Below, one piece after another: positions 5,735 through 64,000 of a stretch of 64,000 bases of DNA. Each line of letters starts with the position of its first letter. The first letter of the stretch is position 1. The position numbers and the translations under genes are program-made. The notes below the pieces were generated by a model, which worked only from the letters and a program-made list of their open reading frames with translations, had not been told where the DNA came from and searched no databases. Origin of the DNA: Shigella phage Sf17; sequence record MF327004; one strand, 5' to 3'.

Positions 5735-8495
<2,761 letters not shown>

Positions 8496-11542: not shown

Positions 11543-12718
11543 ATGCCAGTAGGTGAAATTCAAATTAGTGCATTGCCTCAAGCCTCGTTGCCTATTGATT
11601 TAAGTGATATCTTTCACCTTAAGCAAGGTATTGAGGATAAACGATGCACACTTGAGCAATTACTTGCTCCACACGCATCTTTAAGAAATAACCCACACGG
11701 TGTTACAAAGGTTCACGTAGAACTTGGTAATGTTGTTAACGCACTCCAATTAGTGGCTGCTAATAACTTGTCAGACGTGGTTAGTGTTGAAGAGGCTAGG
11801 CAGAACCTTAATATTCTATCAAGTGATGAAGTTAATGCTCTTATCCAGAATCACATTAATGACAAGAATAACCCTCACAACACTAACAAGATTCAAGTAG
11901 GTTTGTCTAATATTCAAAACTGGACATATTCAAACTCTTACTCTGAAGACGCTGATAAGTATGCTACTGCAAAAGCTGTGAATGCTTTATATAGAGCTAT
12001 CCAGAATAGCTATCCAATCGGTACTATTCATTTGTCAGTTAACCCTGCAAACCCATCTACATATTTACTTTGTGGTGGTACTTGGGAGTTAGTTTCTAAA
12101 GGAAGGTCTCTTGTCGGTTATGACACAGATACAAGACCTGTAGAATCAGTATTTGGTTCTGCTACTGTAACACTTACACAAAATAACATTCCAAGTCACA
12201 CACACTCTGTATTACTAACTGGTGGTGGACACTCCCACAATGCAACAGTAGTAATTTCTAACTTTGACTATGGGACTAAGAGCACATCAAGTTTTGATTA
12301 TGGTTCTAAGGCCACAAACGACTCTGGAAGCCACGCTCATAACGTTAATGGTTCTGTAAGCAGTGCTGGTAGTCACAGCCACAGGATTCCATTGAGGGGT
12401 TCTGACAGGGGTGGTGTGAATGCTATTACGGCAACGGCTGATGCAGGTGTTGGTAATGCGTCATATACAGACTTTGATGGGGTTCACACACATACCTTCA
12501 ACGTTAATTCTTCAGTTGGTGGTAACCACTCTCACAGTGTGTATATCGGAGCACATGGACACAGTGTTGCAATTGGTTCACATGGACACTCAGGTACTGT
12601 GACAGTTCAATCTTCTGAGCACACTCACTCAGGTACAACTGGTGCATTTGGTGCTGGACAAGCATTTAATATTGAGCAACCTTCTTATGTTGTATATGTT
12701 TGGAAGAGAACTGCGTAA
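11543..12718 (+). CDS. tail fibre protein (short) with His-rich distal domain
   Basis: 391 aa; C-terminal third carries repeated HxH motifs (GGGHSHNAT, GSHSHRI, GNHSHSVYIGAHGHSVAIGSHGHSG); ends ...VWKRTA like the next fibre. Confidence 0.55.
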   Translation: MPVGEIQISALPQASLPIDLSDIFHLKQGIEDKRCTLEQLLAPHASLRNNPHGVTKVHVELGNVVNALQLVAANNLSDVVSVEEARQNLNILSSDEVNALIQNHINDKNNPHNTNKIQVGLSNIQNWTYSNSYSEDADKYATAKAVNALYRAIQNSYPIGTIHLSVNPANPSTYLLCGGTWELVSKGRSLVGYDTDTRPVESVFGSATVTLTQNNIPSHTHSVLLTGGGHSHNATVVISNFDYGTKSTSSFDYGSKATNDSGSHAHNVNGSVSSAGSHSHRIPLRGSDRGGVNAITATADAGVGNASYTDFDGVHTHTFNVNSSVGGNHSHSVYIGAHGHSVAIGSHGHSGTVTVQSSEHTHSGTTGAFGAGQAFNIEQPSYVVYVWKRTA

Positions 12719-29334: not shown

Positions 29335-29526
29335 ATGAGAGAGAATAACTTTAAAGTAATTGACCACCGTACAGTGGAACTCTCATCTCTTTCCAAAGAA
29401 GTTATGATGGAGCGACTTGAAAGGGTCGCTTCAAGAAGGAAAGAGATTGCAGAAGAAATCCATGAGCTTGATAAGATTGAAAACGGTCTTAAGGCAGAAC
29501 TACAACGAAGAGGTGTGAATGGCTAA
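29335..29526 (+). CDS. hypothetical coiled-coil protein
   Basis: ATG at 29335 with AAGGTG SD (track start 29326 is GTG); about 63 aa. Confidence 0.4.
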   Translation: MRENNFKVIDHRTVELSSLSKEVMMERLERVASRRKEIAEEIHELDKIENGLKAELQRRGVNG

Positions 29527-31510
29527 ACAGAGAAAACTGAAAGATGCTGGAACATTTGTAGGTCACTGTGCATGTCCACGCCATCAATGTTTATCTTCAG
29601 ATGCAGGTTCTATATATCGTCATGATGACGGTTCATATTCAATGACATGTTTCAGTTGTGGAAAAGGTTTTCCAGAGTGGGATTTTGATAAAGGGCAGAT
29701 TGTGAGTACTCATACTTCAGGTTCAGAGAATAAAAACCGTACATTTCGTGGTATGGATTTAGATGATGTGAAAGAAAACCTAGAAGCAATGGATTTAAAA
29801 GACAGGAAGATTCCTGCAAAAGTCCTTGAGCGTCTTGGTATTAAAGTTGATATTGATGATAACGGTGATATTGATGCACATTTCTATCCAACATACAAAA
29901 AGGATGAAGATGGGAAGTTGCAACATGTAGGTTATCGTGTTCGTCACAAATATCCAGATGACTATCATAAAGAGCACTTACGTGGGAAGTTGAAAGATTT
30001 TTCTGGTGGTGTCGGAGATATTAAAGGTGAACTGGCTATGTTCGGTTCATGGATTGCTCCAGAAGGTGGTAACCGTCTTTTCATCTGGGAAGGTGAGATG
30101 GAATGTGCTACAGCAATCTACATGACTTCTTTAGCAATTAAAGATAAGTCTAGACGTAAGAATTACTGCCACGTTTCTGTACCATCTGGTGCTAATGTTA
30201 AGTCTATCAAAGAGAACTATCAGTATATTACTTCCTTTGATGAAATCTACCTGTGCTTTGATAATGATGAAGCAGGGGCTAAAGCAACTAAGGAAGCTGC
30301 TGGTATCTTACCTATTGAGAAAGTAAGACTGTTCCAGTATCCTGAAGGTATTAAAGACCTTAGTGAGTGGTGGACTAAGTTCTTCAAAGACAAAGATACA
30401 GTCTTAGAAGGATTTAAACAACGAATCTACAATGCACCTCGTTACTGTCCTGCTGGTATCAAGAACTTTGCAGACGGTTTCGATGCTATGAAGAATCGTG
30501 GTCAGATTCCTTTAATTCCTTTCCCAGATTCTTTCGGGGATTTGAATAAGCTGACTTATGGCGGGTATGGTTTAGGTGAAATTACAACCCTTGCTGCACC
30601 TTCATCTGTAGGTAAATCTGCATATACTCGTGAGATGATTTACAAAGCATGGAAAGATACCGAGTACAACATTGGTGTGATTCCTGTAGAAGATACTTAC
30701 GAAGAACTCATGGAAATGCTCTGTGCAATCCATCTTAGTAAGCAGATTTCAGAGATTCCTTACGATGAGCGTAATTGGGATGAGATTAAGGTTGCACATG
30801 CTGAGTTATCAAAAGGTCGTCGTATTCACATCGTAGACCACCAAGGGGCAATTGACCAAGATAACCTGCTGGAGTTTGTTGACTATCTGGTTAACAGTCT
30901 CGATTGTAAGATTATCATCCTTGACCCTATTACATTGGCACTGTCACGCTCTGATACAGATGAAGAAGAAGTTCTGTCTGAGTTACTTCGTCGCTGTAAG
31001 CGTTATCAGTATGCTCAGGTAAACGTATGTCACGTTCGTAAGAGTGCAGGTGGTCAAAAGGCCAACTCTGAAGGTGGTGATATTTCTGAAGAAGATATCA
31101 AGGGTTCTGGTGCATACTTCCAGATTTCCATGAACAACATTTTGCTTATGCGTAACAAGGTTGACCCAGACCCTGTTAAAAAGAACTTGACAAAAATCAA
31201 GCTAACGAAGTGTCGTCGTCATGGTAAATCAACTGGTATTGCTGGTCACACTTGGTACAATCCAGATACAGGCCGTCTTGTAAAGGCTGCTGGATGCGGT
31301 GTTGATATTGATGGTGCAGCAGAGAATATTCGTCAGCAGTTTGGTATTGGTGAGGCTGAAGACCATTACGATGACTCTATGCCACACTATGAAGATGTTG
31401 ATTTTGACCGTGAATCTGGAGAGATTTACACACAAGAGCAACGTGAAAGCTCCACCATTCCACCTGTGATTAACGAGGATAATGATGACTGTCCGTTCGA
31501 AACTGATTGA
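29519..31510 (+). CDS. DNA primase-helicase (T7 gp4-like)
   Basis: 663 aa; N-terminal Cys cluster (CACPRHQC ... CFSCGK), TOPRIM-like acidic motifs (EGEMECATA, CFDNDEAG), helicase P-loop AAPSSVGKS. Confidence 0.8.
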   Translation: MAKQRKLKDAGTFVGHCACPRHQCLSSDAGSIYRHDDGSYSMTCFSCGKGFPEWDFDKGQIVSTHTSGSENKNRTFRGMDLDDVKENLEAMDLKDRKIPAKVLERLGIKVDIDDNGDIDAHFYPTYKKDEDGKLQHVGYRVRHKYPDDYHKEHLRGKLKDFSGGVGDIKGELAMFGSWIAPEGGNRLFIWEGEMECATAIYMTSLAIKDKSRRKNYCHVSVPSGANVKSIKENYQYITSFDEIYLCFDNDEAGAKATKEAAGILPIEKVRLFQYPEGIKDLSEWWTKFFKDKDTVLEGFKQRIYNAPRYCPAGIKNFADGFDAMKNRGQIPLIPFPDSFGDLNKLTYGGYGLGEITTLAAPSSVGKSAYTREMIYKAWKDTEYNIGVIPVEDTYEELMEMLCAIHLSKQISEIPYDERNWDEIKVAHAELSKGRRIHIVDHQGAIDQDNLLEFVDYLVNSLDCKIIILDPITLALSRSDTDEEEVLSELLRRCKRYQYAQVNVCHVRKSAGGQKANSEGGDISEEDIKGSGAYFQISMNNILLMRNKVDPDPVKKNLTKIKLTKCRRHGKSTGIAGHTWYNPDTGRLVKAAGCGVDIDGAAENIRQQFGIGEAEDHYDDSMPHYEDVDFDRESGEIYTQEQRESSTIPPVINEDNDDCPFETD

Positions 31511-52785: not shown

Positions 52786-52816
52786 TGTCTGCATGTTTAA
52801 CAAAATAGGAGTGCAA

Positions 52817-53365
52817 ATGAAGAAATTTGTTTTAGGTTTGTGCTTATTCTTTACAGCACATTTAGCTACAGCATCTGACTGTCCAGAGCTTACAATCAGC
52901 CAGAAAGTTAATATGTTAAAAGCATATAACTATGGCGAAGGGCAGATGGGAAAAGGTTGGGGAATCCCTTTAGCAGCTATAGCCTTACAAGAGTCACAAT
53001 TAGGTGTCATGTTAGAAAATAAAAAGACTCATGATTATGGTGTTTTCCAGAATCACTTGAAGACTGTTGTAAAGCGTAACAAGGTATCTCCAAAGGTTGC
53101 TAAGAAGAAGCTAGTAAGTGACTTCCATTACTCAGCGAAAGAGGCTCATAAGGAGCTATTATTCTGGACTAAGGTTCATGGTAACCCAGATGGAAAGTAC
53201 TCTATGAAGCGTGTCCTAGCTTCTTATAATGCTGGTTACAAATACAAGATTCCAAAGGCTAGACAATACTCTCAAGATGTGTACAATAACATGAAACTGC
53301 TGGCTCAATGTGAGTTTGCAACAAACATTAAAAAGGTAAAATATGAGCGAATCAAAACAATTTGA
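52817..53365 (+). CDS. lytic transglycosylase-like protein with signal peptide
   Basis: ATG 52817 after AGGAG; signal-peptide-like MKKFVLGLCLFFTAHLATA; motifs ALQESQLG, YGVFQ, SYNAG resemble lytic transglycosylase catalytic region. Confidence 0.45.
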   Translation: MKKFVLGLCLFFTAHLATASDCPELTISQKVNMLKAYNYGEGQMGKGWGIPLAAIALQESQLGVMLENKKTHDYGVFQNHLKTVVKRNKVSPKVAKKKLVSDFHYSAKEAHKELLFWTKVHGNPDGKYSMKRVLASYNAGYKYKIPKARQYSQDVYNNMKLLAQCEFATNIKKVKYERIKTI

Positions 53366-56108: not shown

Positions 56109-56903
56109 ATGGGTATCGTAAAAATTATTAAAGGTGATATCTTTAAAGACTTTGATGGTAAGAAGTTTGATATCATTGGTCACGGTTGTAACTGCATGAA
56201 CTTGATGGGTTCAGGTATCGCAGCAACAATTGCTAAACGCTACCCAAAAGCTTATGAAACTGACGCTGAGGTTTATGCTACAGTAGGTGGTGAAAATCAT
56301 AACCCTAAGCACCTAATGCTTGGTAACATCTCTGTAGCACGTTTTAAGCAGGGTCGGATTGCTAACCTTTATACTCAGGTTATCACTGGCAAAGATGCAC
56401 GGTACAATGCTTTAGAAGCAGCTTTGCAGCGTCTGAATAATTACTGCAAAGTCAACCAACTTAAGAAAGTTGGGCTTCCTATGATTTGTGCAGGGATTGG
56501 TGGTCTTGATAGTATGGCTGTGCTGTCCATTATTAATCAGACTATGAAAGATGTTGACGTATATATGTATGTCTATGAAGATAAGATGTACAGTCAGTTG
56601 ACTAGTCCTGTTACTGGTTGGGAGAACTTCAGTGAGCCTCAATATTTTGATGGTGTTGCTGTGGTAGGCAAGGATAAAGTTACCCTCAAGGTGAAGCGTA
56701 ATGGCAAGGTACACACCAGTTACCCTCCGGTTGAGAAGTACAATCGAAGTAACGCTCAAGTTACCCACCCGTTACAAGGTCACCACCACAGAGCGGTAAC
56801 GTTTGGTGATGATGCAAGTGTGTATATCAATGCGACTACAGAAGAGTTTGCAGAAGATTATATCACACATGAAAACGTAAACTATGTTGAAGCACGTAAC
56901 TAA
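56109..56903 (+). CDS. macro-domain protein (Poa1p-like ADP-ribose-phosphate phosphatase family) with C-terminal extension
   Basis: ATG 56109; motifs KGDIFK, DIIGHGCNC, GSGIAATIAKRYP, GLPMICAGIGGLD parallel yeast Poa1p (IHSCNC ... GGGIAYQLALRYP); about 100 extra C-terminal residues. Confidence 0.5.
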   Translation: MGIVKIIKGDIFKDFDGKKFDIIGHGCNCMNLMGSGIAATIAKRYPKAYETDAEVYATVGGENHNPKHLMLGNISVARFKQGRIANLYTQVITGKDARYNALEAALQRLNNYCKVNQLKKVGLPMICAGIGGLDSMAVLSIINQTMKDVDVYMYVYEDKMYSQLTSPVTGWENFSEPQYFDGVAVVGKDKVTLKVKRNGKVHTSYPPVEKYNRSNAQVTHPLQGHHHRAVTFGDDASVYINATTEEFAEDYITHENVNYVEARN

Positions 56904-56930
56904 TAAGTTACCCAGATAAACATAGACAAG

Positions 56931-57156
56931 CCCTCCAAAGTTTGAGTTTAAAATCTCAGGTAAGGGGGGCTTTTTCATTTTAAATTTGTGCAGGTATAGT
57001 TGCATAGAACTCTGGACAGATTTCTTTAGCTGAACTCCAAAGGGAAAATTCATTTCAAATTTGTGCAGGTTTAGACTCCAAAGAGCTTTTTCATTTTCAA
57101 TCTGTGCAGATGCAGTTGGACTCCAAAGGGAAAATTCATTTTCAAATTGTGCAGGT
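56931..57156. repeat. tandem direct repeats (4 copies, about 36-bp unit at 41-45-bp period)
   Basis: CTCCAAAG-N-TTCATTT(T)CAAAT(T)TGTGCAGRT at 56931/56971-56995 (split copy), 57035-57070, 57076-57111, 57121-57156. Confidence 0.65.
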
Positions 57157-57173
57157 AGGTAGCTGTAGGAAAC

Positions 57174-57208
57174 CAGCCCCACCATCCCCTCTTACTCCCC
57201 TTCCTCCC
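57174..57208. other. C-rich polypyrimidine tract
   Basis: AGCCCCACCATCCCCTCTTACTCCCCTTCCTCCC, G-free on + strand, directly after the repeat array. Confidence 0.4.
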
Positions 57209-57329: not shown

Positions 57330-57358
57330 TTGACTTCATAAATCCAGTCTTATAGTAT
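57330..57358 (+). promoter_or_regulatory. sigma70-type promoter TTGACT-17-TAGTAT
   Basis: In AT-rich region; followed by CATCAACGGGAAACATCCC hairpin and the conserved leader CAATCCTAAACTGGAGAATCTAAAAATG. Confidence 0.5.
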
Positions 57359-57407
57359 TTGCATCAACGGGAAACATCCCAACAATCCTAAACTGGAGAA
57401 TCTAAAA

Positions 57408-57614
57408 ATGTTATATCAACGTGAGTTAATGATTGTTGACAACAACAAAACAAATAAACGTCGTTTCTATATGCTAATTTGTGATGTTTGGCAACGTATC
57501 TCAGAAAAGGATTTTGATGAATATGTTGATACGTCAATCAGGTCTGATTGTTATTTGACAACTCATACAAGACAGTTTACAAGGCATACAGCAATTTATT
57601 ATTATAACGTTTAA
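57408..57614 (+). CDS. hypothetical early protein
   Basis: 68-aa ORF behind conserved leader/SD CTGGAGAATCTAAAAATG. Confidence 0.45.
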   Translation: MLYQRELMIVDNNKTNKRRFYMLICDVWQRISEKDFDEYVDTSIRSDCYLTTHTRQFTRHTAIYYYNV

Positions 57615-57619
57615 AGTGC

Positions 57620-57648
57620 TTTACATGGGGTTTAAAAGCTAGTATATT
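57620..57648 (+). promoter_or_regulatory. early-cassette promoter TTTACA-17-TATATT
   Basis: Spacer starts TGGGG, -10 followed by AAGCCCCA (inverted repeat spanning the -10), then conserved leader. Confidence 0.5.
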
Positions 57649-57698
57649 AAGCCCCAGATAAAGAGCTTTACCAACAATCCTAAACTGGAGACTCTAAA

Positions 57699-58079
57699 AT
57701 GAAATATCGTGCGCCTAAATTTATCAACAAAGAAAACTTTCGTAGTATCTTAGAAGAAACTATGAAAGAAAACTTCAAAGGAAAAATAATTGTTGTTCAC
57801 GCTTACAATTTTAAGTATGATGTTAATGGTAACCGTATTAACCACTACAAAGCTACTATGCTTGACGGTACATTATCCGGTGAAAAAGCTATCATAAATG
57901 CTATTGCAGGACGTGGTAAAACTGTGATACGATGCGAAAAAAGACGCTATCAAGGCGGTAAATATGGGTATGAAGATGCAATGTACCATCTTGATAAAAT
58001 GGGGTATGATGTAGAGAAAGCTGGAGTATCTCAAACTATTGGTAGTGACGGCTACGTTACAGTTTTCAAAATTAACTAA
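57699..58079 (+). CDS. hypothetical early protein
   Basis: 126-aa ORF behind conserved cassette leader. Confidence 0.45.
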   Translation: MKYRAPKFINKENFRSILEETMKENFKGKIIVVHAYNFKYDVNGNRINHYKATMLDGTLSGEKAIINAIAGRGKTVIRCEKRRYQGGKYGYEDAMYHLDKMGYDVEKAGVSQTIGSDGYVTVFKIN

Positions 58080-58088
58080 ATAAAGTCC

Positions 58089-58117
58089 TTTACATGGGGT
58101 TTATAATTAGATAAGAT
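58089..58117 (+). promoter_or_regulatory. early-cassette promoter TTTACA-17-TAAGAT
   Basis: Same cassette architecture. Confidence 0.5.
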
Positions 58118-58170
58118 AAGCCCCAGATAAAGAGCTTTACCAAACAATAACCTAAACTGGAGTATCAAAA

Positions 58171-58428
58171 ATGGCTACTATCAAAAACATCATTGTATCT
58201 GCAAAATCTCGTGATGACGCTCGCGCAACTGCTAAAAAATTAAATGGTAAGGTGGTTGACAACGGAAAAGAATCTGCTGTAAGATGGGGCGTAAAATGTG
58301 ATAAGGAAATTACTTTAAAACGTAGTTCCTATGACCTTTTCAAAGGTGTAAAAGCAATCGGTAGAACTAACGTCTACACGAAGAAAGGTTATAAAATGCA
58401 CTTATCATTAACTGACAATTTAATCTGA
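58171..58428 (+). CDS. hypothetical early protein
   Basis: 85-aa ORF behind cassette leader. Confidence 0.45.
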   Translation: MATIKNIIVSAKSRDDARATAKKLNGKVVDNGKESAVRWGVKCDKEITLKRSSYDLFKGVKAIGRTNVYTKKGYKMHLSLTDNLI

Positions 58429-58436
58429 TAAAGTGC

Positions 58437-58465
58437 TTTACATGGGGTTTATAGTTAGATAAGAT
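58437..58465 (+). promoter_or_regulatory. early-cassette promoter TTTACA-17-TAAGAT
   Basis: Same cassette architecture. Confidence 0.5.
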
Positions 58466-58519
58466 AAGCCCCAGATAAAGAGCTTTACTAACCAATAGTC
58501 CTAAACTGGAGAATCTAAA

Positions 58520-59032
58520 ATGAATTTTGTTGAAGCTACCTTTGAAGTTCAAAAAGAAAAATTCACTATCATCTATGAAGCTGTTAATATTTGTGAAGCA
58601 TCCCATTGTGTGGAAAATTGGAAGTTTACCGATGAGCACAAAGGCGGGGTTACAATCAAACTTAAAAATCCAGAGCGTAACGGGTACAAATATGCAATTC
58701 CACAGCATTACAGCCTTTCACAATTGATGAGTGATTATGCTAAACAAGGCCGCGAAAATCCATCTATAGAGGCTTACAAGAGCTTACAAGATGAATTACA
58801 AAGAGATTTAGAGGCTAACAGCTACGTGCTATTTGCAAAGGTAGAAGATAAAGAAGGTAATACAGTATTAAATAGCTTTTCTCTTGCTTATGGCTTCGAT
58901 TGGTGCTATCTTGACGGGGAAGATTTAGATTCACGATTAGAAGAGGAAGTGTCGAACTCCGATGGAGAATCTGAAGTAATGGAACGTTTAGAAGCCTTGA
59001 AAGATTCTGTTATGAATATCTTTAATATCTAA
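58520..59032 (+). CDS. hypothetical early protein
   Basis: 170-aa ORF behind cassette leader. Confidence 0.45.
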   Translation: MNFVEATFEVQKEKFTIIYEAVNICEASHCVENWKFTDEHKGGVTIKLKNPERNGYKYAIPQHYSLSQLMSDYAKQGRENPSIEAYKSLQDELQRDLEANSYVLFAKVEDKEGNTVLNSFSLAYGFDWCYLDGEDLDSRLEEEVSNSDGESEVMERLEALKDSVMNIFNI

Positions 59033-59037
59033 AGTGC

Positions 59038-59066
59038 TTTACATGGGGTTATCAAGTTGATAAGAT
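59038..59066 (+). promoter_or_regulatory. early-cassette promoter TTTACA-17-TAAGAT
   Basis: Same cassette architecture. Confidence 0.5.
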
Positions 59067-59115
59067 AGCCCCAGATAAAGAGCTTTACCAACAATCCTAA
59101 ACTGGAGAATCTAAA

Positions 59116-59412
59116 ATGTTTATTGCCGCAAACGTTAGAACTAAATTAAGCCAGCTATTAAGTAATATTCAATTCATTGAATCCATGCGCCGTACTTCTG
59201 AAGCCGTAGAGTGGTATCATGGAAAGATTAACAAAAAAGAAGTAATAATTTGTGTATGGAACTTTTGCAAAGAATACAAAAAACCATTGCTTCAGGTTGA
59301 TATATATGATAACACTAATAAGTCATCGATTAAGACTACTAGAGATATGGTTGATTCATATGAAATTAGTCACACTGGTAAACTATTTCACAAAGGCGTG
59401 AACAAATGTTAA
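59116..59412 (+). CDS. hypothetical early protein
   Basis: 98-aa ORF behind cassette leader. Confidence 0.45.
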   Translation: MFIAANVRTKLSQLLSNIQFIESMRRTSEAVEWYHGKINKKEVIICVWNFCKEYKKPLLQVDIYDNTNKSSIKTTRDMVDSYEISHTGKLFHKGVNKC

Positions 59413-59780
59413 TCACATACACTGCAATTTTTATCTCTATTGTGGCGCTCTATAAAGCCTTGCAAGCGCACAGTATAGCTAATAAGGCACTTACAAGGGA
59501 TTTAAAAATAAATCTTGTACGGGGCTTTTTAGAGCGTTTGAGCTTAGAACAATTGAAACGTTTAGAGATGAGCTTTCGATTCAAAGCAGAAACATACCGG
59601 ATTGATAACATCCTAGATGGTGATTTTAAATTAATCAGTGATTATGACATACTTCTTGAGTCAATTCAAGATATAAACCTGAAAGATTATTATATCGTGA
59701 TAGCGCAAGAAATTAATAAAAAAGAGCTTGCAATGCGGGGCAAGATAGAAGCCCCAACAATCCTAAACTGGAGAATCTGA
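59406..59780 (+). CDS. hypothetical early protein
   Basis: 124-aa ORF with hydrophobic N-terminus; its 3' end encodes a leader-only cassette copy (59748-59782). Confidence 0.4.
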   Translation: MLITYTAIFISIVALYKALQAHSIANKALTRDLKINLVRGFLERLSLEQLKRLEMSFRFKAETYRIDNILDGDFKLISDYDILLESIQDINLKDYYIVIAQEINKKELAMRGKIEAPTILNWRI

Positions 59781-59782
59781 AA

Positions 59783-60055
59783 ATGTATACTACTAATGAC
59801 GGTCGAACTTTGAACGTAACTTTAAAACACTATATAGACGGTGTATTAAACTTTGAAGAGTTAAGAGCAGAACAGCACCTATTAGATTGGCAAGTAGCAG
59901 GTTTACAAAAACCCGCCACAGGATATGGAAAGAAAATTCCTACATCTTGGAAAGTTCGATACCTTGGAAAGTTACGCAGAATTTATCAAGATGTTTATAG
60001 TAATAGCGGTGTAAGTTACATTATTGTTAGCGGTAAAAAATTGTATTTAGTCTAA
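59783..60055 (+). CDS. hypothetical early protein
   Basis: 90-aa ORF behind leader-only cassette copy. Confidence 0.45.
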   Translation: MYTTNDGRTLNVTLKHYIDGVLNFEELRAEQHLLDWQVAGLQKPATGYGKKIPTSWKVRYLGKLRRIYQDVYSNSGVSYIIVSGKKLYLV

Positions 60056-60063
60056 TAAATTGC

Positions 60064-60092
60064 TTTACATGGGGTTATCAAGTTGATAAGAT
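60064..60092 (+). promoter_or_regulatory. early-cassette promoter TTTACA-17-TAAGAT
   Basis: Same cassette architecture, leader variant AACCTAAACTGGAGACTAGAAAATG. Confidence 0.5.
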
Positions 60093-60144
60093 AGCCCCAG
60101 ATAAAGAGATTTATCTAAAACTAACCTAAACTGGAGACTAGAAA

Positions 60145-60552
60145 ATGACTAATGTTAATCACAAAGAAGTTGCAATTTTGAAAGCACGTTTGACCATTAA
60201 CCGCATCAACATTGTAACATCAGCAGCACCAGACGAAACACTACATAATATCATCGGTAAAATTCAGGGCGCAGTAGTAGACACAAAACAGCTTAAAGAA
60301 TCCTTGCAAGATGTAGCAGCAGGAGCTATAATTGACGGTGCTCAGTATGAGATGAAAGAAATGCTGTCAAAGTCAAAAGTAATGAATAAAGAACTTGACT
60401 TGAAAATGTTTAGATTTGCTGTTAAAGTGTGGCTATGTGTTGATTTTGATGCAAACTTTGCAATTGCTGATTTCTTTGCAACATGGTTACAGCGTAACTT
60501 ACCGGTTGAAGTTTTCCGTGAAATCTGCGATGCAATTTATTCAGAGATTTGA
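60145..60552 (+). CDS. hypothetical early protein
   Basis: 135-aa ORF behind cassette leader. Confidence 0.45.
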   Translation: MTNVNHKEVAILKARLTINRINIVTSAAPDETLHNIIGKIQGAVVDTKQLKESLQDVAAGAIIDGAQYEMKEMLSKSKVMNKELDLKMFRFAVKVWLCVDFDANFAIADFFATWLQRNLPVEVFREICDAIYSEI

Positions 60553-60581
60553 TTGACATTGCAAAAGCATAGTAGTAGAGT
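60553..60581 (+). promoter_or_regulatory. sigma70-type promoter TTGACA-17-TAGAGT
   Basis: Begins immediately after preceding stop; followed by ACTCATCAACGGGGCAAG motif. Confidence 0.5.
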
Positions 60582-60658
60582 ACTCATCAACGGGGCAAGC
60601 TGATACATGCCGACTCTTAACACAACTTGATAACCTTGGCAAGCCGTTTTTATATCAT

Positions 60659-60826
60659 ATGCCAGATAACACTGCAAAAACTTACAGTTACATTGTAAAC
60701 CGTTTTACGGCTTATGGTTCAAAGTATGGCTATAATGTCAAGACTCAAAAAGTGACTTTGTTCACAAGTATTGAAGAGTTACCAACTGTTGCCGTTAAAC
60801 TAATCTTTACAAAGAAAACTAAATAA
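60659..60826 (+). CDS. possible small ORF
   Basis: 55-codon ATG ORF downstream of promoter 60553-60581, no clear SD; below ORF-track cutoff. Confidence 0.25.
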   Translation: MPDNTAKTYSYIVNRFTAYGSKYGYNVKTQKVTLFTSIEELPTVAVKLIFTKKTK

Positions 60827-60831
60827 AGTGC

Positions 60832-60860
60832 TTTACATGGGGTTTATAGTTAGATAAGAT
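60832..60860 (+). promoter_or_regulatory. early-cassette promoter TTTACA-17-TAAGAT
   Basis: Same cassette architecture. Confidence 0.5.
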
Positions 60861-60910
60861 AAGCCCCAGATAAAGAGCTTTACCAACAATCCTAAACTGG
60901 AGAATCTAAA

Positions 60911-61468
60911 ATGAAATGCTTTCATGGTACTACACAAGAAAACTTTGTAAACCTTATCAATGGCGGTGATAAACCATCAGGAGCTTGGAATTGCTCTGAT
61001 ATGGATGGATGTTTTTACGTCTACCCTGTTAACAAGTTCTATGATGTAGAGAATCTGGATGACGAACAAATCACAGATGAAGGTATTAGAAACGCGCTTG
61101 ATAGCGCAAGCATTACAGCAGCCTATCAAATGAAGTCACAAAAGCTTGTTATCTTGGAACTGGATATTCCAGAAGATGATTTACAAGATGACTGGAGCTG
61201 TGAGAACATGAGCGACGTAGCAAGCTTTACAGAATATTTCGATAAAGAATGGATTAAAAAGGTTTACACAACTGAATTTAATGCTATGTATGCACCTTTC
61301 TTTGTCCCTAACCTAAACAATAGAAATTTAGGATATGTACCAGACGAACTACGCAACATTGCAGAAATAGTCCAACGTAGTGATGGGATGAGTAATGTAT
61401 ATTGTGATATCTTTGACACCATGCAATGCAACGTAACAGAAACGGTTATAAACGACTTAACAGCATAA
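60911..61468 (+). CDS. hypothetical early protein
   Basis: 185-aa ORF behind cassette leader. Confidence 0.45.
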   Translation: MKCFHGTTQENFVNLINGGDKPSGAWNCSDMDGCFYVYPVNKFYDVENLDDEQITDEGIRNALDSASITAAYQMKSQKLVILELDIPEDDLQDDWSCENMSDVASFTEYFDKEWIKKVYTTEFNAMYAPFFVPNLNNRNLGYVPDELRNIAEIVQRSDGMSNVYCDIFDTMQCNVTETVINDLTA

Positions 61469-61531
61469 ACCATAGAATCACACCAGTTCACTAGAAAAGC
61501 CCCGCACAGGGGCTTACAAGAGGCTTAAAAG

Positions 61532-61762
61532 ATGCTTACAACAATCTATCTTATCTTATCTATCTGCAATGGTTCACAATGTGACTTTAAAGGTTTAGAA
61601 GAGTTTACAGGTAGCGAAAATAATGCTATTGTTGCTTGTCAGATAGCAAGGCAAGACTACCCTACATCAGATGATATCCAATGTTACTATAAATCAGAAG
61701 ATGAATACGGGATTTATTTTGATAGTGTGAATGGTGATTATGAAATTCTTATAGAAAAGTAG
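61532..61762 (+). CDS. hypothetical early protein
   Basis: 76-aa ORF with AAGAGG SD, preceded by hairpin AAGCCCC-gcaca-GGGGCTT. Confidence 0.4.
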   Translation: MLTTIYLILSICNGSQCDFKGLEEFTGSENNAIVACQIARQDYPTSDDIQCYYKSEDEYGIYFDSVNGDYEILIEK

Positions 61763-61791
61763 TTGACACTGAAAACGCAAACCAGTAGAGT
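61763..61791 (+). promoter_or_regulatory. sigma70-type promoter TTGACA-17-TAGAGT
   Basis: Begins right after preceding stop; followed by ACTCATCAACGGGGCAAG and cassette leader. Confidence 0.5.
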
Positions 61792-61847
61792 ACTCATCAA
61801 CGGGGCAAGTTAGAAGCCCCAACAATCCTAAACTGGAGATTCAAAAA

Positions 61848-62069
61848 ATGTTGCAAGTTCTTAACGTAAAAACCATTGATTTTAAATTCTCAAATGTTCG
61901 TCGTACCTATTTACAACCGTTTAATAACCCTGTTAGAATTCCCAATGATGACGCTAAAAAGTTGATTGATGAAATTCTAGCTAATGGCGGTTATCTGGCT
62001 AGTCATAAGCAGTATAATGATGAGGCTGGAAGCCTGATAAATGAGTTTACATATTATTACTACAAATAA
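61848..62069 (+). CDS. hypothetical early protein
   Basis: 73-aa ORF behind cassette leader. Confidence 0.45.
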   Translation: MLQVLNVKTIDFKFSNVRRTYLQPFNNPVRIPNDDAKKLIDEILANGGYLASHKQYNDEAGSLINEFTYYYYK

Positions 62070-62081
62070 CTAATAAAGTGC

Positions 62082-62110
62082 TTTACATGGGGTAAACTGG
62101 AGAATCTAAA
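62082..62110 (+). other. truncated early cassette (-35 and GGGG joined directly to SD)
   Basis: AAAGTGCTTTACATGGGGTAAACTGGAGAATCTAAAATG: the -10, CCCC arm and leader body are missing. Confidence 0.5.
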
Positions 62111-62308
62111 ATGTTATCACTGATGCAAAAACTTTCTACCTTGTGGTGTTTAAAAGGTGTAGAGTGTAACCTTAACATGGAAGGTTCAAAGATAGACCTA
62201 AAAATAGTATACAATGGAGAAATACTATTCTCACAGAATAGCAGTCATCCACACTTCAAAGATAATGCAATTATGGCCGTGAATAATCTGATGGATAGAA
62301 TTTATTAA
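62111..62308 (+). CDS. hypothetical early protein
   Basis: 65-aa ORF behind truncated cassette. Confidence 0.4.
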   Translation: MLSLMQKLSTLWCLKGVECNLNMEGSKIDLKIVYNGEILFSQNSSHPHFKDNAIMAVNNLMDRIY

Positions 62309-62313
62309 AGTGC

Positions 62314-62342
62314 TTTACATGGGGTTTAAAAGCTAGTATCTT
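62314..62342 (+). promoter_or_regulatory. early-cassette promoter TTTACA-17-TATCTT
   Basis: Same cassette architecture, weaker -10. Confidence 0.45.
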
Positions 62343-62393
62343 AAGCCCCAAAGAAAGAGCTTTACCAACAATCCTAAACTGGAGAATCTGAAA

Positions 62394-62735
62394 ATGGCCT
62401 ATGTAACAATTATCACCGATAAAGAAAATTCGTCATGGTCTACCCAAGTTAACGACAAAATGAAACCTATGCAGTGTCTCAAGTACTTTGAGCAATGGAA
62501 CAGGGGAGAAGATGTAAGCCCGTTTCAAGTGATGCAGATTGTACATGTTGACAATGAAGGGAATAAAACTACCCTTAACACTGAATACTATGCTACACGT
62601 TTCGAAACTCGCAAATCAGCTATGCAGGAGTTAAGAGAAAAGGGATATAGTCACATTGCCGCGCTCATTTGGTCTGATTTGCTTAAAAAACAGTCATTAA
62701 CCTATGTTAAGCCAGAAAAAATCTTTATAAGCTAA
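62394..62735 (+). CDS. hypothetical early protein
   Basis: 113-aa ORF behind cassette leader. Confidence 0.45.
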   Translation: MAYVTIITDKENSSWSTQVNDKMKPMQCLKYFEQWNRGEDVSPFQVMQIVHVDNEGNKTTLNTEYYATRFETRKSAMQELREKGYSHIAALIWSDLLKKQSLTYVKPEKIFIS

Positions 62736-62862
62736 TCAACAACTTATAAAAATCTTTTGAAAAACTATTGACAATGCCCCTTGACAAGTGTAACTTTGTT
62801 CGAGGGGGTTTATCTAAAAGGGATTAACTTAATAGATTCTTTATAGATAAGCGTAAAAAGTA

Positions 62863-62891
62863 CTTGCAAAGGTCTAATCATATCTATATAG
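62863..62891 (+). promoter_or_regulatory. sigma70-type promoter TTGCAA-17-TATAGT
   Basis: Upstream of leader TTCCTAAACTGGAGAATCACTAAATG. Confidence 0.45.
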
Positions 62892-62931
62892 TATCTTCAA
62901 AAGGCAACTTCCTAAACTGGAGAATCACTAA

Positions 62932-63063
62932 ATGTTAGATATCATTAAAAACCCTATCCTTTGCGGTATGATTGTTTCTGTTGTGTTGCCATTAGCAATG
63001 CTCATCATTGGTGAAATCTCAGATAAACTTTTTGATAAAAAACTAGGGAGACTTCCCCACTAA
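62932..63063 (+). CDS. small hydrophobic peptide
   Basis: 43-codon ORF MLDIIKNPILCGMIVSVVLPLAMLIIG... behind cassette leader; its last codons are the GGGAGACTTCCCCACTAA element. Confidence 0.35.
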   Translation: MLDIIKNPILCGMIVSVVLPLAMLIIGEISDKLFDKKLGRLPH

Positions 63064-63092
63064 AACAAAATTCCTAAACTGGAGAATCTAGA

Positions 63093-63620
63093 ATGAATAA
63101 GTTTAATGCTGTTAATGCAATCCGTAGCCGTGAAGTGATGAGCAAGCCTTGTAAAGATACTTGGGAATTTACCTTAAAGAGCAAAGTTTTTGCAGTTATC
63201 ACAAAAGGGGAAGATAAGAAGTTTTATGTACACCGACCAAATGTAAAAGCGGTAACAGCCAACAACTTTATGGGGGCTATTTCTCTTATTCTGAATGATT
63301 ATATGGCTATAGTCGCAGAAATTCACGAAATGGCTATTAAGGCAACTAAAAACGAGTTAAACCGCTTTAAAATGGCTTATGAGCGCTCTATTAAGTCCCA
63401 TAATCTTTTTATTGCAATCCACTATACAGGCATGTATGCTATGGGAACGGGTAACCAACAATACCCACTCTATGAAGTGGAAAACATCTTTACAAGTGAC
63501 TACCCAACAACTAATTTTAAAATTACGTTAGGGGAAGCATTAAGTAGGGGAATTAGGCTTTACGAACAATCTTTAAAAAACTTAGAAAATTCCCTTGACG
63601 AAATCATCACAAATCTATAA
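63093..63620 (+). CDS. hypothetical early protein
   Basis: 175-aa ORF behind cassette leader. Confidence 0.45.
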   Translation: MNKFNAVNAIRSREVMSKPCKDTWEFTLKSKVFAVITKGEDKKFYVHRPNVKAVTANNFMGAISLILNDYMAIVAEIHEMAIKATKNELNRFKMAYERSIKSHNLFIAIHYTGMYAMGTGNQQYPLYEVENIFTSDYPTTNFKITLGEALSRGIRLYEQSLKNLENSLDEIITNL

Positions 63621-63623
63621 AGT
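63595..63623 (+). promoter_or_regulatory. sigma70-type promoter TTGACG-17-TAAAGT inside 3' end of ORF 63093-63620
   Basis: Followed by ACTTATCAACGGGGAGGGAGACTTCCCC hairpin and leader. Confidence 0.45.
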
Positions 63624-63685
63624 ACTTATCAACGGGGAGGGAGACTTCCCCACTAAAACAAAATTCCTAAACTGGAGAATCTAGA

Positions 63686-63949
63686 ATGAATAATCAAGAA
63701 ATCACTATCCTGTTACAAATCGGTACTGACAAAGAAGATATCCAACTTTGCAAACGTATTGAAAGTGATTGGTTCAACGGTGAAATCATCGCAGAATCTT
63801 ATGAAGTAGTTGGATTTATGAATGGTGCAATTGTAAGCCATTTCGGTTTAACTAAATCTGAAGCCGTTGCAAAGTATGACGTTTTATCTTGTGAGATTCT
63901 TACAAAATACAATGAAAAAAGACTTGCAACTTATGCAGCAATGAATTAA
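63686..63949 (+). CDS. hypothetical early protein
   Basis: 87-aa ORF behind cassette leader. Confidence 0.45.
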   Translation: MNNQEITILLQIGTDKEDIQLCKRIESDWFNGEIIAESYEVVGFMNGAIVSHFGLTKSEAVAKYDVLSCEILTKYNEKRLATYAAMN

Positions 63950-63952
63950 TAT
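63924..63952 (+). promoter_or_regulatory. sigma70-type promoter TTGCAA-17-TAATAT inside 3' end of ORF 63686-63949
   Basis: Followed by TTTCAACGGGGAGGGAGACTTCCCC hairpin and start of another leader at window edge. Confidence 0.45.
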
Positions 63953-64000
63953 TACTTTCAACGGGGAGGGAGACTTCCCCACTAACCTAAATTCCTAAAC

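Follow-up and report, generated by a model that had tools for sequence, protein, structure and literature searches.

Promoter–hairpin–leader cassettes between the small genes of Shigella phage Sf17 resemble the PeSL cassettes of T4-like phages

The window analyzed here comprises 64,000 nucleotides of Shigella phage Sf17 (record MF327004), a Mooglevirus-like phage of the Ounavirinae with ∼97% identity to the Shigella phages Sf13 and Sf18. It encodes a family-A polymerase and a Toprim+DnaB fusion, and the "T7-type replisome" ascribed to it in a preliminary description is therefore a fair term. The ∼7 kb between 57.3 and 64.0 kb of this Felix-O1-like phage carry small genes of unknown function. 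These cargo ORFs are mutually unrelated: no two share a blastp family, their PHROGs are distinct, and no Pfam domain was found in them. Between them lie repeated cassettes, all on the + strand and in numbers far above chance; none was found outside this block within the whole window. As the genes next to the cassettes share no relationship, gene duplication does not account for the repeats. The block contains seven full and one truncated cassette of class 1, five of class 2, one hairpin-less promoter, and two remnants with deleted promoters (Table 1).

Table 1. Cassettes, related elements, and genes in the Sf17 window (positions in the window; ATG, first base of the start codon)
Feature	Position	Strand	–35	–10	Hairpin	Predicted +1	SD	ATG
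Family-A polymerase	24347–27046	–
Toprim+DnaB fusion	29519–31510
17 cargo ORFs (43–185 aa)	57408–63949	+						57408, 57699, 58171, 58520, 59116, 59406, 59783, 60145, 60659, 60911, 61532, 61848, 62111, 62394, 62932, 63093, 63686
Class 2, first promoter of block, shared leader	57330–57410	+	TTGACT 57330–57335	TAGTAT 57353–57358	GGGAAACATCCC 57369–57380		57395	57408
Class 1	57610–57701	+	57620–57625	TATATT 57643–57648	57627–57655 (–13.1 kcal/mol)	A 57656	57687	57699
Class 1	58079–58173	+	58089–58094	TAAGAT 58112–58117	58096–58124 (–13.5 kcal/mol, z –5.0)	A 58125	58159	58171
Class 1	58427–58522	+	58437–58442	58460–58465	58444–58472	A 58473		58520
Class 1, 28-nt hairpin variant	59028–59118	+	59038–59043	59061–59066	GGGGTTATC..GATAGCCCC 59045–59072 (–16.1 kcal/mol, z –4.7)	A 59073		59116
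Class-2 remnant, leader kept	59728–59785	+	TTGCAA	lost	GGGGCAAGATAGAAGCCCC 59737–59755			59783
Class 1, leader variant GAGATTTATCT	60054–60147	+	60064–60069	60087–60092	60071–60098	A 60099		60145
Class-2 promoter, partial hairpin (TTGACA-17-TAGAGT 60553–60581)	60553–60599	+	TTGACA	TAGAGT	5′ arm and part of loop, from 60592		lost	lost
Class 1	60822–60913	+	60832–60837	60855–60860	60839–60867	A 60868		60911
Promoter-less hairpin, in 63-nt gap before ORF 61532	61499–61513	+			GCCCCGCACAGGGGC (–13.4 kcal/mol)
Class 2	61763–61850	+	TTGACA 61763–61768	TAGAGT 61786–61791	61802–61820		61835	61848
Truncated class 1	62072–62113	+	kept	lost	GGGG kept		kept	62111
Class 1	62304–62396	+	62314–62319	TATCTT 62337–62342	62321–62349	A 62350		62394
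Hairpin-less promoter, shared leader (TTGCAA-17-TATAGT 62864–62892)	62864–62934	+	TTGCAA	TATAGT				62932
Class-2 remnant, leader kept	63046–63095	+	lost	lost	rest, GGGAGACTTCCCC 63046–63058			63093
Class 2	63595–63688	+	TTGACG 63595–63600	TAAAGT 63618–63623, overlapping upstream stop codon	GGGGAGGGAGACTTCCCC 63634–63651 (–13.4 kcal/mol)		63674	63686
Class 2, cut by window end, leader start	63924–64000	+	TTGCAA 63924–63929	TAATAT 63947–63952	63963–63980

A repeat search of the sequence revealed a 65–89-nt family with six to seven copies and a 31-nt leader with 11 copies. GCTTTACATGGGG has eight matches with ≤2 mismatches, compared with 0.91 expected (0 of 100 shuffles), and CCCCAGATAAAGAGCTTTA has seven matches (0.00 expected), while the shared leader CCTAAACTGGAG matches 13 times, always on the + strand and within 57387–63677 (0.33 expected). 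All seven full class-1 cassettes carry the –35 element TTTACA, a 17-nt spacer, a –10 element (TAAGAT, TATATT or TATCTT), a 28–29-nt GGGG...CCCC hairpin running from the spacer through the –10 element, and a 43–47-nt leader with GGAG 8–9 nt upstream of the ATG. This anatomy had been proposed before for at least eight copies; with the truncated one, eight were indeed located, and every ORF start listed for them is correct. In the cassette at 57610, the TAA of the upstream ORF (57612–57614) lies inside the TAAAG box, and the cassette at 60822 recurs with 100% identity in Mordin and Sf13. The truncated cassette lost its loop, –10 element, 3′ arm, and most of the leader by a 50-nt deletion, whose junction is spanned by no phage record.

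A second promoter type had been assigned to five positions. It is present as described at 61763, 63595, and 63924, the last of which is followed by an 83-aa ORF in relatives. At 60553, the promoter was found, but its hairpin is cut in the loop by a 60-nt deletion, which also removed the 3′ arm, leader, SD, ATG, and seven codons of an 82-aa ORF, leaving a 55-aa ORF (60659–60826). The promoter listed at 62863 starts at 62864 and lacks the TCAACGGGG hairpin. Additional to that listing are the class-2 copy before ORF 57408, kept in all Mooglevirus relatives, and the two remnants. At 59728, a 30-nt deletion took the spacer and –10 element; the ORF upstream (59406–59780) has 14 extra codons, and its PHROG profile stops at residue 110 of 124. 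At 63046, a 45-nt deletion removed the –35 element, spacer, –10 element, and part of the 5′ arm.

Conservation of the promoter was assessed in 11 phages with 56 distinct copies. TTTACA, the G/C clamps, and –10 positions 1, 2, and 6 (T, A, and T) do not vary, in contrast to the remainder of the spacer and loop, and the spacing is 17 throughout. The variable spacer interiors between fixed –35 and –10 elements noted earlier are seen across 11 relatives as well as in IMG/VR contigs. In a σ70 scan, the cassette sites score 9–10 of 12, all on the + strand, with –10 hexamers that match only four of six consensus positions. A class-1 cassette begins with the A-rich box TAAAG, often providing the stop codon of the preceding ORF, followed by a putative host σ70 promoter (TTTACA, 17-nt spacer, TAnnnT). 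Transcription is predicted to start at the A directly after CCCC, which would give an mRNA with an unstructured 43–47-nt leader at its 5′ end and GGAG 8 nt upstream of the ATG.

This AT-rich region has many promoter-like hexamers, with 26.7 expected by chance in 7.5 kb, and the cassettes could be intrinsic terminators between genes with fortuitous –35 and –10 matches. However, members of different genera share an unchanged TTTACA, 17-nt spacing, and TAnnnT within a loop that otherwise varies, and no T-run follows any cassette hairpin, which makes this explanation extremely unlikely. The conserved hairpin at the promoter in every copy could also mean that these are hairpin promoters, comparable to those of phage N4 and read by a phage-specific RNA polymerase or one carried in the virion, instead of host σ70 promoters. 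Early promoters of phage N4 have short stems and 3-nt loops; the 10–11-nt loops of the cassettes hold the σ70 –10 element, with a canonical –35 element at 17 nt. Together with the Felix O1 genome, for which the authors report no phage RNA polymerase (PMC3185647), this leaves such promoters a next to negligible probability. In the literature searched, the sole experimental hint on timing is RT-PCR in Felix O1, in which ORFs 16, 20, 21, and 22 reach their maximum at 5 min, on a coarse scale on which some structural genes are also called early; ORFs 16 and 20 come after the two "57-bp repeats".

The hairpin itself is maintained by compensatory changes. Among 70 copies, 32 distinct hairpins keep nine pairs via G-C↔T-A, T-A↔A-T, and C-G/G-C changes, a pattern replicated by 49 distinct hairpins among 138 IMG/VR copies. 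In 41 hairpins, pairing amounts to 99.2%, compared with 93.0 ± 0.9% in shuffles, and the covariation score is 0.212, compared with 0.099 (0 of 500 shuffles in both cases); slid controls are 28–66% paired. Folding energies of the hairpins range from –13 to –16 kcal/mol (z –2.8 to –5.0), and no structure is predicted for the leader (z +0.8). Roughly half of the variants have T-G at pair 5, which thus forms on the + strand only.

These data also bear on whether the inverted repeat acts as DNA, either as an operator at which a dimeric regulator of phage or host origin silences early promoters or as a supercoil-driven cruciform. Its position over the –10 element would be typical of an operator, highly conserved palindromic boxes, TAAAG-NN-CTTTA, flank it on both sides, and how transcription is timed in Felix O1 is stated as unknown in its genome paper (PMC3185647). 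Yet the arm sequences change while pairing stays, and one repressor could not follow such changes across the sites of a single genome; in a cruciform, the G-T wobbles at pair 5, present in about half of the variants, would leave C-A mismatches in the opposite strand. We therefore regard a DNA-level element as very unlikely.

A role of the hairpin in RNA would differ between the classes. The class-1 hairpin (9–10 bp, GGGG...CCCC) is encoded across the spacer and –10 element; it would therefore be missing from its own transcript and form only in RNA entering from the upstream gene. There, it would most likely act as a 3′ attenuator or stabilizer, insulating neighboring units. Because no U-tract lies downstream, it is not a classical terminator. 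The promoter-less hairpin at 61499 likewise has no T-tract after it, and no promoter of its own was found for the downstream ORF 61532 in any relative; a similar hairpin must hence be read through, which makes strong termination unlikely. The class-2 hairpin is predicted to lie 2–3 nt past the start and would thus be a 5′-terminal stem-loop on its own mRNA.

The preliminary description had also expected cassettes at the boundaries of gene gain and loss. Every internal homology breakpoint relative to the five close relatives Sf18, Sf13, KPS64, Henu11, and Mordin falls in cassettes, and while a core segment of equal size is aligned in one piece in 40 records, this holds for the cassette block in none. 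Indels between close relatives comprise one ORF and one cassette-equivalent, with hybrid cassettes left behind: KPS64 and Mordin lack ORF 62111 plus one cassette-equivalent, and their junction cassette combines the hairpin of the left copy with the ATG context of the right copy. Cassette variants are also exchanged between positions. ORFs that are 99–100% identical differ in cassette variant or class, and what precedes the ORF 62394 family is one of three class-1 variants in some phages and class 2 in others. Genome-specific leaders indicate concerted evolution.

Alternatively, the cassettes could be expression signals kept alike by selection, with genes turning over through illegitimate intergenic events and no causal part of the cassettes in shuffling. 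Since cassettes make up almost all gaps between genes in the block, any break that is tolerated will fall in one, and the location of the breakpoints is partly forced by selection against breaks within ORFs. Moreover, the four small deletions in Sf17 show microhomology of ≤1 nt and thus represent illegitimate events, not homologous exchange. Selection alone, however, does not readily account for indels of one ORF and exactly one cassette-equivalent that leave hybrids, for hairpin variants that change place although their flanking ORFs are 99–100% identical, or for the homogenization of non-functional leader positions within genomes, and we consider it unlikely. Instead, recombination between cassettes would delete, insert, or swap single ORFs and homogenize the cassettes.

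The proposed resemblance to PeSL cassettes extends to their defining sequence features and order of parts (RB49/phi1, T4, KVP40). As in RB49/phi1 (Arbiol et al. 2010; PMC2839356), the stop codon of the preceding gene lies within an A-rich sequence and is followed by σ70-type –35 and –10 boxes 17 nt apart, by a GGGG...CCCC stem-loop that contains G-T pairs and lies between these boxes or across the –10 element, and then by an SD and an ATG; many co-oriented copies occur among small ORFans in a hyperplastic region, where they bound indels of single ORFs in closely related genomes. The published order also holds in RB49 itself, whose hyperplastic region (106–132 kb) was read directly, for example ...TTGACAATGATTAAATGGAGTAGTAAGATACTCCC...GGAGAATCAAAATG, with a G-run/C-run stem-loop over the –10 element or just past it. 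No sequence homology to T4-type PeSLs was found beyond a 19-nt SD-to-ATG stretch. The –35 element is TTTACA in Sf17 and TTGACA there, and Sf17 class 1 is one tightly homogeneous family with the hairpin always over the spacer and –10 element and an initial transcribed box, AGATAAAGAGCTTTAC, that does not vary. For RB49/phi1, promoter and terminator activity as well as mini-circles have been demonstrated experimentally (PMC2839356). The T4/PST PeSL promoter TTTACW-N17-TAYWAT is close to TTTACA-17-TAAGAT of Sf17, and the incomplete copies at 62072, 59728, and 63046 look like the degraded "1/2" PeSLs (–35 or stem only) that adjoin indels in T4/PST and KVP40/nt-1 (Comeau et al. 2014; PMC4122927). 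In both of these phage pairs, the stem-loop, called a terminator, lies just upstream of the promoter, in contrast to its position over the –10 element (class 1) or past the start (class 2) in Sf17. Morons likewise consist of a single accessory gene with its own promoter and a downstream stem-loop, but lack conserved flanks for exchange (Hendrix et al. 2000, in PMC2839356), whereas the Sf17 flanks are a repeated family.

The same elements have been recorded in relatives as repeats only, with no promoter, hairpin, or recombination role assigned. The "57-bp" and "39-bp" direct repeats of Felix O1 (Whichard et al. 2010; PMC3185647) correspond to class 1 (CTTTACATGGGGCTTAAAAGTCTGTAAAGTAAGCCCCAGATAAAGAGCTTTACCACT) and the class-2 promoter (TTGACACTGG...CATCAAC), and the 14-nt "repeat_region" features of Citrobacter phage Mordin to the shared leader.

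Taken together, each cassette probably forms the entire link between two genes and drives, as an autonomous and presumably early unit, the expression of the small ORF that follows. With ∼90 bp repeated ∼17 times in a single orientation, the cassettes would also serve as portable homology and may be mobile. Because Sf17 is not T4-like, we suggest that they work like PeSLs and fit their definition, not that they share common descent. PeSL cassettes were previously known only from T4-like phages (RB49 and phi1 belong to the Straboviridae); a system resembling them would thus be present in a phage of the Ounavirinae, whose relatives appear to use near-identical linkers as recombination points for single-gene swaps.

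The cassette block at 57.3–64.0 kb was analyzed by direct reading of the sequence, mechanical scans, and a scripted parse. A repeat search identified two families, one of 65–89 nt with six to seven copies and one of 31 nt with 11. In the window, the words GCTTTACATGGGG, CCCCAGATAAAGAGCTTTA, and CCTAAACTGGAG match 8, 7, and 13 times, compared with 0.91, 0.00, and 0.33 matches expected, and ATCAACGGGG is found five times within the block. Every cassette copy lies on the + strand, with ∼17 copies in these 6.7 kb; the remainder of the 64-kb window has none. Repeat search, word counts, and scripted parse thus bear out, with small corrections, the preliminary description of repeated promoter-hairpin-leader units in front of small ORFs. 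Its second promoter type, described as followed by a hairpin, is present in this form at 61763, 63595, and 63924, but the hairpin is truncated at 60553 and absent at 62864.

Cassettes and cassette derivatives of the early block
Feature	Position (nt)	Number	Strand	Source
Full class-1 cassettes		7	+	scripted parse
Truncated class-1 copy	62072–62113		+	
Class-2 cassettes	57330, 60553 (truncated), 61763, 63595, 63924		+	
Hairpin-less promoter with the shared leader	62864		+	
Promoter-deleted remnants	59728, 63046	2	+	

A class-1 unit consists of a –35 region TTTACA, a 17-nt spacer, and a –10 region TAAGAT, TATATT, or TATCTT, with a hairpin of 28–29 nt reaching from the spacer through the –10 region. 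Transcription is predicted to start at the A that forms the first base past the stem. The leader is 43–47 nt long and carries GGAG 8–9 nt 5′ of the ATG; a small stem considered within it, in AGAUAAAGAGCUUUAC, was rejected (–1.2 kcal/mol, z +0.8), leaving the leader unstructured. The upstream stop codon is located 5–13 nt ahead of the –35 region, in four of eight copies within a TAAAG box. Class-2 cassettes show the order TTGACA/TTGCAA/TTGACG-17-TAnnnT, ACTCATCAAC, a G-run/C-run hairpin, and the same leader as in class 1.

An alignment covered 56 distinct class-1 copies, taken from the window and from ten relatives (Sf18, Sf13, KPS64, Henu11, Mordin, Silverhawkium, SUSP2, PK6, Felix O1, and Erwinia phage Rouille). 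No variation was seen in TTTACA, in the G/C stem clamps, or at positions 1, 2, and 6 of the –10 region (T, A, and T), around which the loop is otherwise variable. The distance between –35 and –10 is always 17 nt, and the one-base difference between hairpins of 28 and 29 nt lies 3′ of the –10 region, so that the spacer is unaffected. These constraints support the prediction of a σ70 promoter in class 1. Invariant boxes are present on either side of the hairpin, upstream TAAAG-N-GCTTTACA/TAAAGNGCTTTACA and, at +1 to +16, AGATAAAGAGCTTTAC. In every class-1 cassette, one box occurs as a direct repeat on both sides of the hairpin (for example, 57613–57625 with 57659–57671): the upstream box AAAGTGCTTTACA includes the –35 region, the downstream box AAAGAGCTTTACC lies at about +4 to +16, and the palindrome TAAAG-NN-CTTTA is found in both. 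Of all cassette parts, the downstream box is best conserved, and it is also found in Erwinia phages with an otherwise different leader. In Citrobacter phage Mordin (6410–6529), two class-1 cassettes stand in tandem 5′ of the homologue of ORF 57699 (ORFs are named by their start coordinate); the junction ...GAGCTTTACCAA|CTTTACATGGGG... represents a duplicated cassette lacking an intervening ORF.

The stem of the class-1 hairpin comprises 9–10 bp, with a predicted stability of –13 to –16 kcal/mol and z-scores of –2.8 to –5.0. With end-anchored arms, nine pairs are retained in 32 distinct hairpins (70 copies), with exchanges at pairs 3, 5, 7, 8, and 9 that include G-C to T-A, T-A to A-T, and C-G or G-C. 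Hairpin positions 5–10 are 86% paired, compared with 18–47% if the partner is slid, and hairpins collected independently from IMG/VR (49 distinct of 138) show the same pairing pattern. The combined MAFFT alignment offsets the 28-nt and 29-nt classes; therefore, the formal count was confined to 29-nt hairpins, and both classes together were counted by script on end-anchored arms. Among 41 distinct 29-nt hairpins, 99.2% of the cells are paired compared with 93.0 ± 0.9% after shuffling (0/500), the covariation score is 0.212 compared with 0.099 (0/500 shuffles), and slid controls reach 28–66% pairing. In Erwinia phages, the clamp GGGG/CCCC is replaced by GGTG/CACC. In about half of the variants, pair 5 consists of T-G; this forms a wobble on the + strand, but the opposite strand has a C-A mismatch there, so that the species that folds is the + strand, most simply as RNA. 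By this evidence, the inverted repeat is a hairpin under selection, probably at the level of RNA. A search with the Rfam 15 covariance models returned only two chance miRNA matches (E 0.29 and 0.62).

Since the predicted start is the base past the stem, the class-1 hairpin would be missing from its own transcript and would form solely in RNA coming from the upstream gene. The hairpins do not qualify as intrinsic (Rho-independent) terminators: no U-tract was found after them, as they are followed by AGATAAAG in class 1 and by AACAAT/ACTAAA in class 2, and a terminator scan returned none on the + strand at the cassettes. Moreover, ORF 61532 is promoter-less in every relative and is located behind a similar hairpin. 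Because of this ORF and the lack of a U-tract, the class-1 hairpin would act as an attenuator or 3′-end stabilizer rather than as an efficient terminator. The class-2 hairpin begins 2–3 nt past the predicted start, which, in view of mRNA decay in general, would be the geometry of a 5′-terminal stabilizing stem-loop.

The cargo of the block comprises 17 ORFs that fall into separate blastp families and separate PHROGs, all of “unknown function”; no Pfam domains were found in them. As the ORFs belong to different families, the repeats did not arise as a side effect of gene duplication. A comparison of the block in ten phages shows at least 13 presence/absence or replacement events, each affecting one or two ORFs. 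In agreement with the expectation that cassettes mark the boundaries of gene gain and loss, every internal homology breakpoint in five close relatives is located within a cassette. In the same phages, a core segment of equal size aligns unbroken at 98–99%, while the block is fragmented. The location of the breakpoints alone is not an independent test because nearly all intergenic DNA in this region is cassette, and cassette-free junctions are few as a control.

The argument for exchange is instead carried by hybrid cassettes and by the swapping of variants. In Sf13, the order is ORF 61848, cassette a, ORF 62111, cassette b, ORF 62394. KPS64 and Mordin carry between ORF 61848 and ORF 62394 a single hybrid cassette with the flank and hairpin of a and the ATG context of b. 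Similarly, 3′ of ORF 61532 the promoter half of a class-2 cassette stays constant with the upstream gene, whereas the hairpin/leader half varies with the following ORF. A table of ORF families by phage reveals the same protein (99–100% identity) behind differing hairpin variants or even cassette classes: the ORF 62394 family is preceded by three class-1 variants or by class 2, the ORF 61848 family by two class-2 variants or by class 1. The leaders carry signatures specific for the genome (GGAGAATCT in Mooglevirus, GGAGATTCA in SUSP2 and Felix O1, CCCTTAAACTAGGAG in PK6, and AAAGGAAT in Erwinia phages), indicating concerted evolution. Taken together, the comparative evidence appears to support well that the cassettes mediate gene exchange. 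Mixed cassettes are found in Rouille (4186–4254, 6676–6753, and 7081–7153), which combine a class-1-type A-box and either TTTACA or TTGCAA with another hairpin (GGGGTTA..TAACCCC), an extended –10 region (TGAGACTAT), and a class-2-like leader without the AGATAAAGAG box. They show that cassette halves can recombine between classes.

Compared with Sf13, the window carries four deletions of 30, 60, 50, and 45 nt at 59736, 60599, 62093, and 63045. All are located inside cassettes, with microhomology of at most 1 nt and one end at the 5′ G-run of the hairpin, and three of the four remove the promoter. The 30-nt deletion is shared with Sf18; the junctions at 62093 and 63045 are spanned by no record in the phage collection. 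A foreign replacement at 60600, represented by ORF 60659–60826, was considered and rejected, as this ORF aligns with the 3′ part of an 82-aa ORF of the relatives after the 60-nt deletion. The four deletions, a small sample viewed post hoc, suggest that the hairpins are fragile points. It is conceivable, though unlikely, that a dedicated phage or host factor recognizes the invariant boxes flanking the class-1 hairpin, or the hairpin itself; such a factor would time early shut-off, or would initiate gene exchange by cutting or stalling at the hairpin. Hairpin-directed breakage fits the G-run end of all four deletions.

On sequence grounds, the window phage is a member of the Ounavirinae, genus Mooglevirus. 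The block has matches in 208 phage records, the closest being Shigella phages Sf13, Sf15, and Sf18 (∼97%) and Citrobacter phage Mordin (∼88%). Genes for rIIA/rIIB, a lysozyme-like ORF, polynucleotide kinase, spanins, and a macro-domain protein are located 5′ of it. The label “T7-type replisome” given to this phage is fair, because a family-A DNA polymerase is encoded in the window together with a Toprim-DnaB fusion. A blastn search with a single cassette found 1484 places in 286 phage records; the matches listed are Escherichia, Salmonella, Shigella, Citrobacter, and Erwinia phages of the Ounavirinae. Staphylococcus phage SA1 (GU169904.1, 147,303 bp) contains six cassette copies at 88% identity together with early-block matches; the record thus apparently includes Felix O1-like sequence and may be mixed or mislabelled. 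An occurrence in other phage types was rejected, as the 20-mer CCCCAGATAAAGAGCTTTAC is restricted to contigs of 54–94 kb in IMG/VR. Bacterial cassettes were likewise rejected: the 20-mer occurs once in 185,579 bacterial genomes, a chance match without flanking homology. The cassette is a hallmark of the Ounavirinae and was not found in hosts among these genomes.

Two further elements accompany the block. The 196-nt gap between ORF 62394 and ORF 62932 (62736–62931) is almost invariant in Mooglevirus, Suspvirus, and Felixounavirus, while the flanking ORFs are just 75–80% identical. It contains TTGACA-17-TAACTT (62768–62796), overlapping a hairpin CCCCTTGACA..TTCGAGGGG, and a 17-bp imperfect hairpin (62809–62851) with four G-U pairs that folds on the + strand only. 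The RNA fold of the gap has a z-score of –3.5, no Rfam match was found for it, and covariation is not seen because the sequence does not vary. The gap may represent a small RNA or regulatory site. Just 5′ of the first early promoter, a 500-nt non-coding stretch carries four ∼42-nt repeats ending in TTTTCATTTTCAAATTGTGCAGGT (56953–57156). The same four boxes are present in Rouille (2088–2546) and are therefore conserved across the subfamily. An ORF on the – strand (56772–57185), which varies in length among relatives and lacks a Pfam match, overlies these repeats.

PeSLs (promoter-early stem-loop cassettes) were defined in RB49/phi1 (PMC2839356) and extended to T4/PST and KVP40/nt-1 (PMC4122927). 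They consist of a σ70-type early promoter and a G-run/C-run stem-loop in AT-rich context, limited by an upstream stop codon at the 5′ and by an SD and ATG at the 3′ end; the stem-loop, which includes G-T pairs, mostly lies between the boxes or over the –10 region, and the cassettes cluster in hyperplastic regions at indel boundaries (PMC2839356, PMC4122927). Their functional hallmarks are promoter and terminator/attenuator activity in reporter fusions and the generation of mini-circles containing an ORF when neighbouring cassettes recombine. The window cassettes resemble them in each of these respects. Classes 1 and 2 both carry predicted σ70-like promoters with boxes ∼17 nt apart and a stable G-run/C-run stem-loop in or beside the promoter. 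The upstream stop lies in the AT-rich 5′ part and the SD and start codon at the 3′ end; the copies are numerous and grouped in a hyperplastic region made up of small ORFans, and indels or replacements are bounded by cassettes, leaving chimeric ones behind. Our direct reading of the RB49 hyperplastic region revealed the same order of parts, with some hairpins spanning a TAAGAT or TAATAT –10 region. Unlike PeSLs, the window cassettes reside in an Ounavirinae and not in a T4-like (Straboviridae) genome. We regard T4-like occurrence as historical context and not as a functional criterion, because PeSLs of the T4 subgroups also differ from each other in sequence. By this measure, the window cassettes have every feature that defines PeSLs at the sequence level, and the resemblance first proposed from the sequence alone is supported.

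RB49 PeSLs and window cassettes share this architecture without detectable homology, matching only in a 19-nt SD-to-ATG stretch. This match (RB49 12245–12263 and window 60895–60913; ACTGGAGAATCAAAAATG and ACTGGAGAATCTAAAATG) is nearly exact, and CGAAAC is common to the leaders of Erwinia phages and RB49. Because the cassettes are otherwise unrelated, the likeness may reflect convergence on an efficient ribosome site. A RegB-type cleavage of the GGAG leaders was considered because of a nearby Mordin ORF annotated as “similar to T4 RegB” and was rejected: the window homologue (52793–53365) has only a weak SLT lysozyme-like match and no match to a RegB family.

The authors who described PeSLs saw no evidence yet of such plasticity outside T4-like phages and considered the question worth investigating. 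In the searched literature, we found no paper linking PeSLs to Felix O1-like phages and no transcriptome of these phages. The repeat itself was already known: the Felix O1 paper lists the same elements only as direct repeats, two of 57 bp and two of 39 bp (PMC3185647), and the Mordin record annotates part of the repeat as a 14-nt repeat_region. New relative to this literature is the PeSL-type setting outside the T4-like phages. For Felix O1, both a phage RNA polymerase and a known σ modifier were reported to be absent and temporal control was stated to be unknown (PMC3185647). In RT-PCR, ORFs 16 and 20 (located after the two 57-bp repeats), 21, and 22 peak at 5 min (PMC3185647), which lends weak, independent support to early expression.

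The cassette block provides a clean second PeSL-type case, in an unrelated myovirus subfamily, and the cassette is carried by ∼290 sequenced relatives. It seems unlikely to us that “plug-and-play” cassettes of this type are no T4 peculiarity but a convergent, general device of virulent phages which in the Ounavirinae is recognized by a factor instead of serving as passive homology. For the engineering of Felix O1-like phages, which are applied in biocontrol of Salmonella, E. coli, and Shigella, the cassettes could offer naturally occurring insertion points as well as strong, ready-made units for early expression. To the open point of how early genes of Felix O1 are transcribed without a phage polymerase, the cassettes suggest a concrete, testable answer and predict exact start sites. 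The ∼20 exchangeable early ORFs are likely cargo for host takeover or anti-defence.
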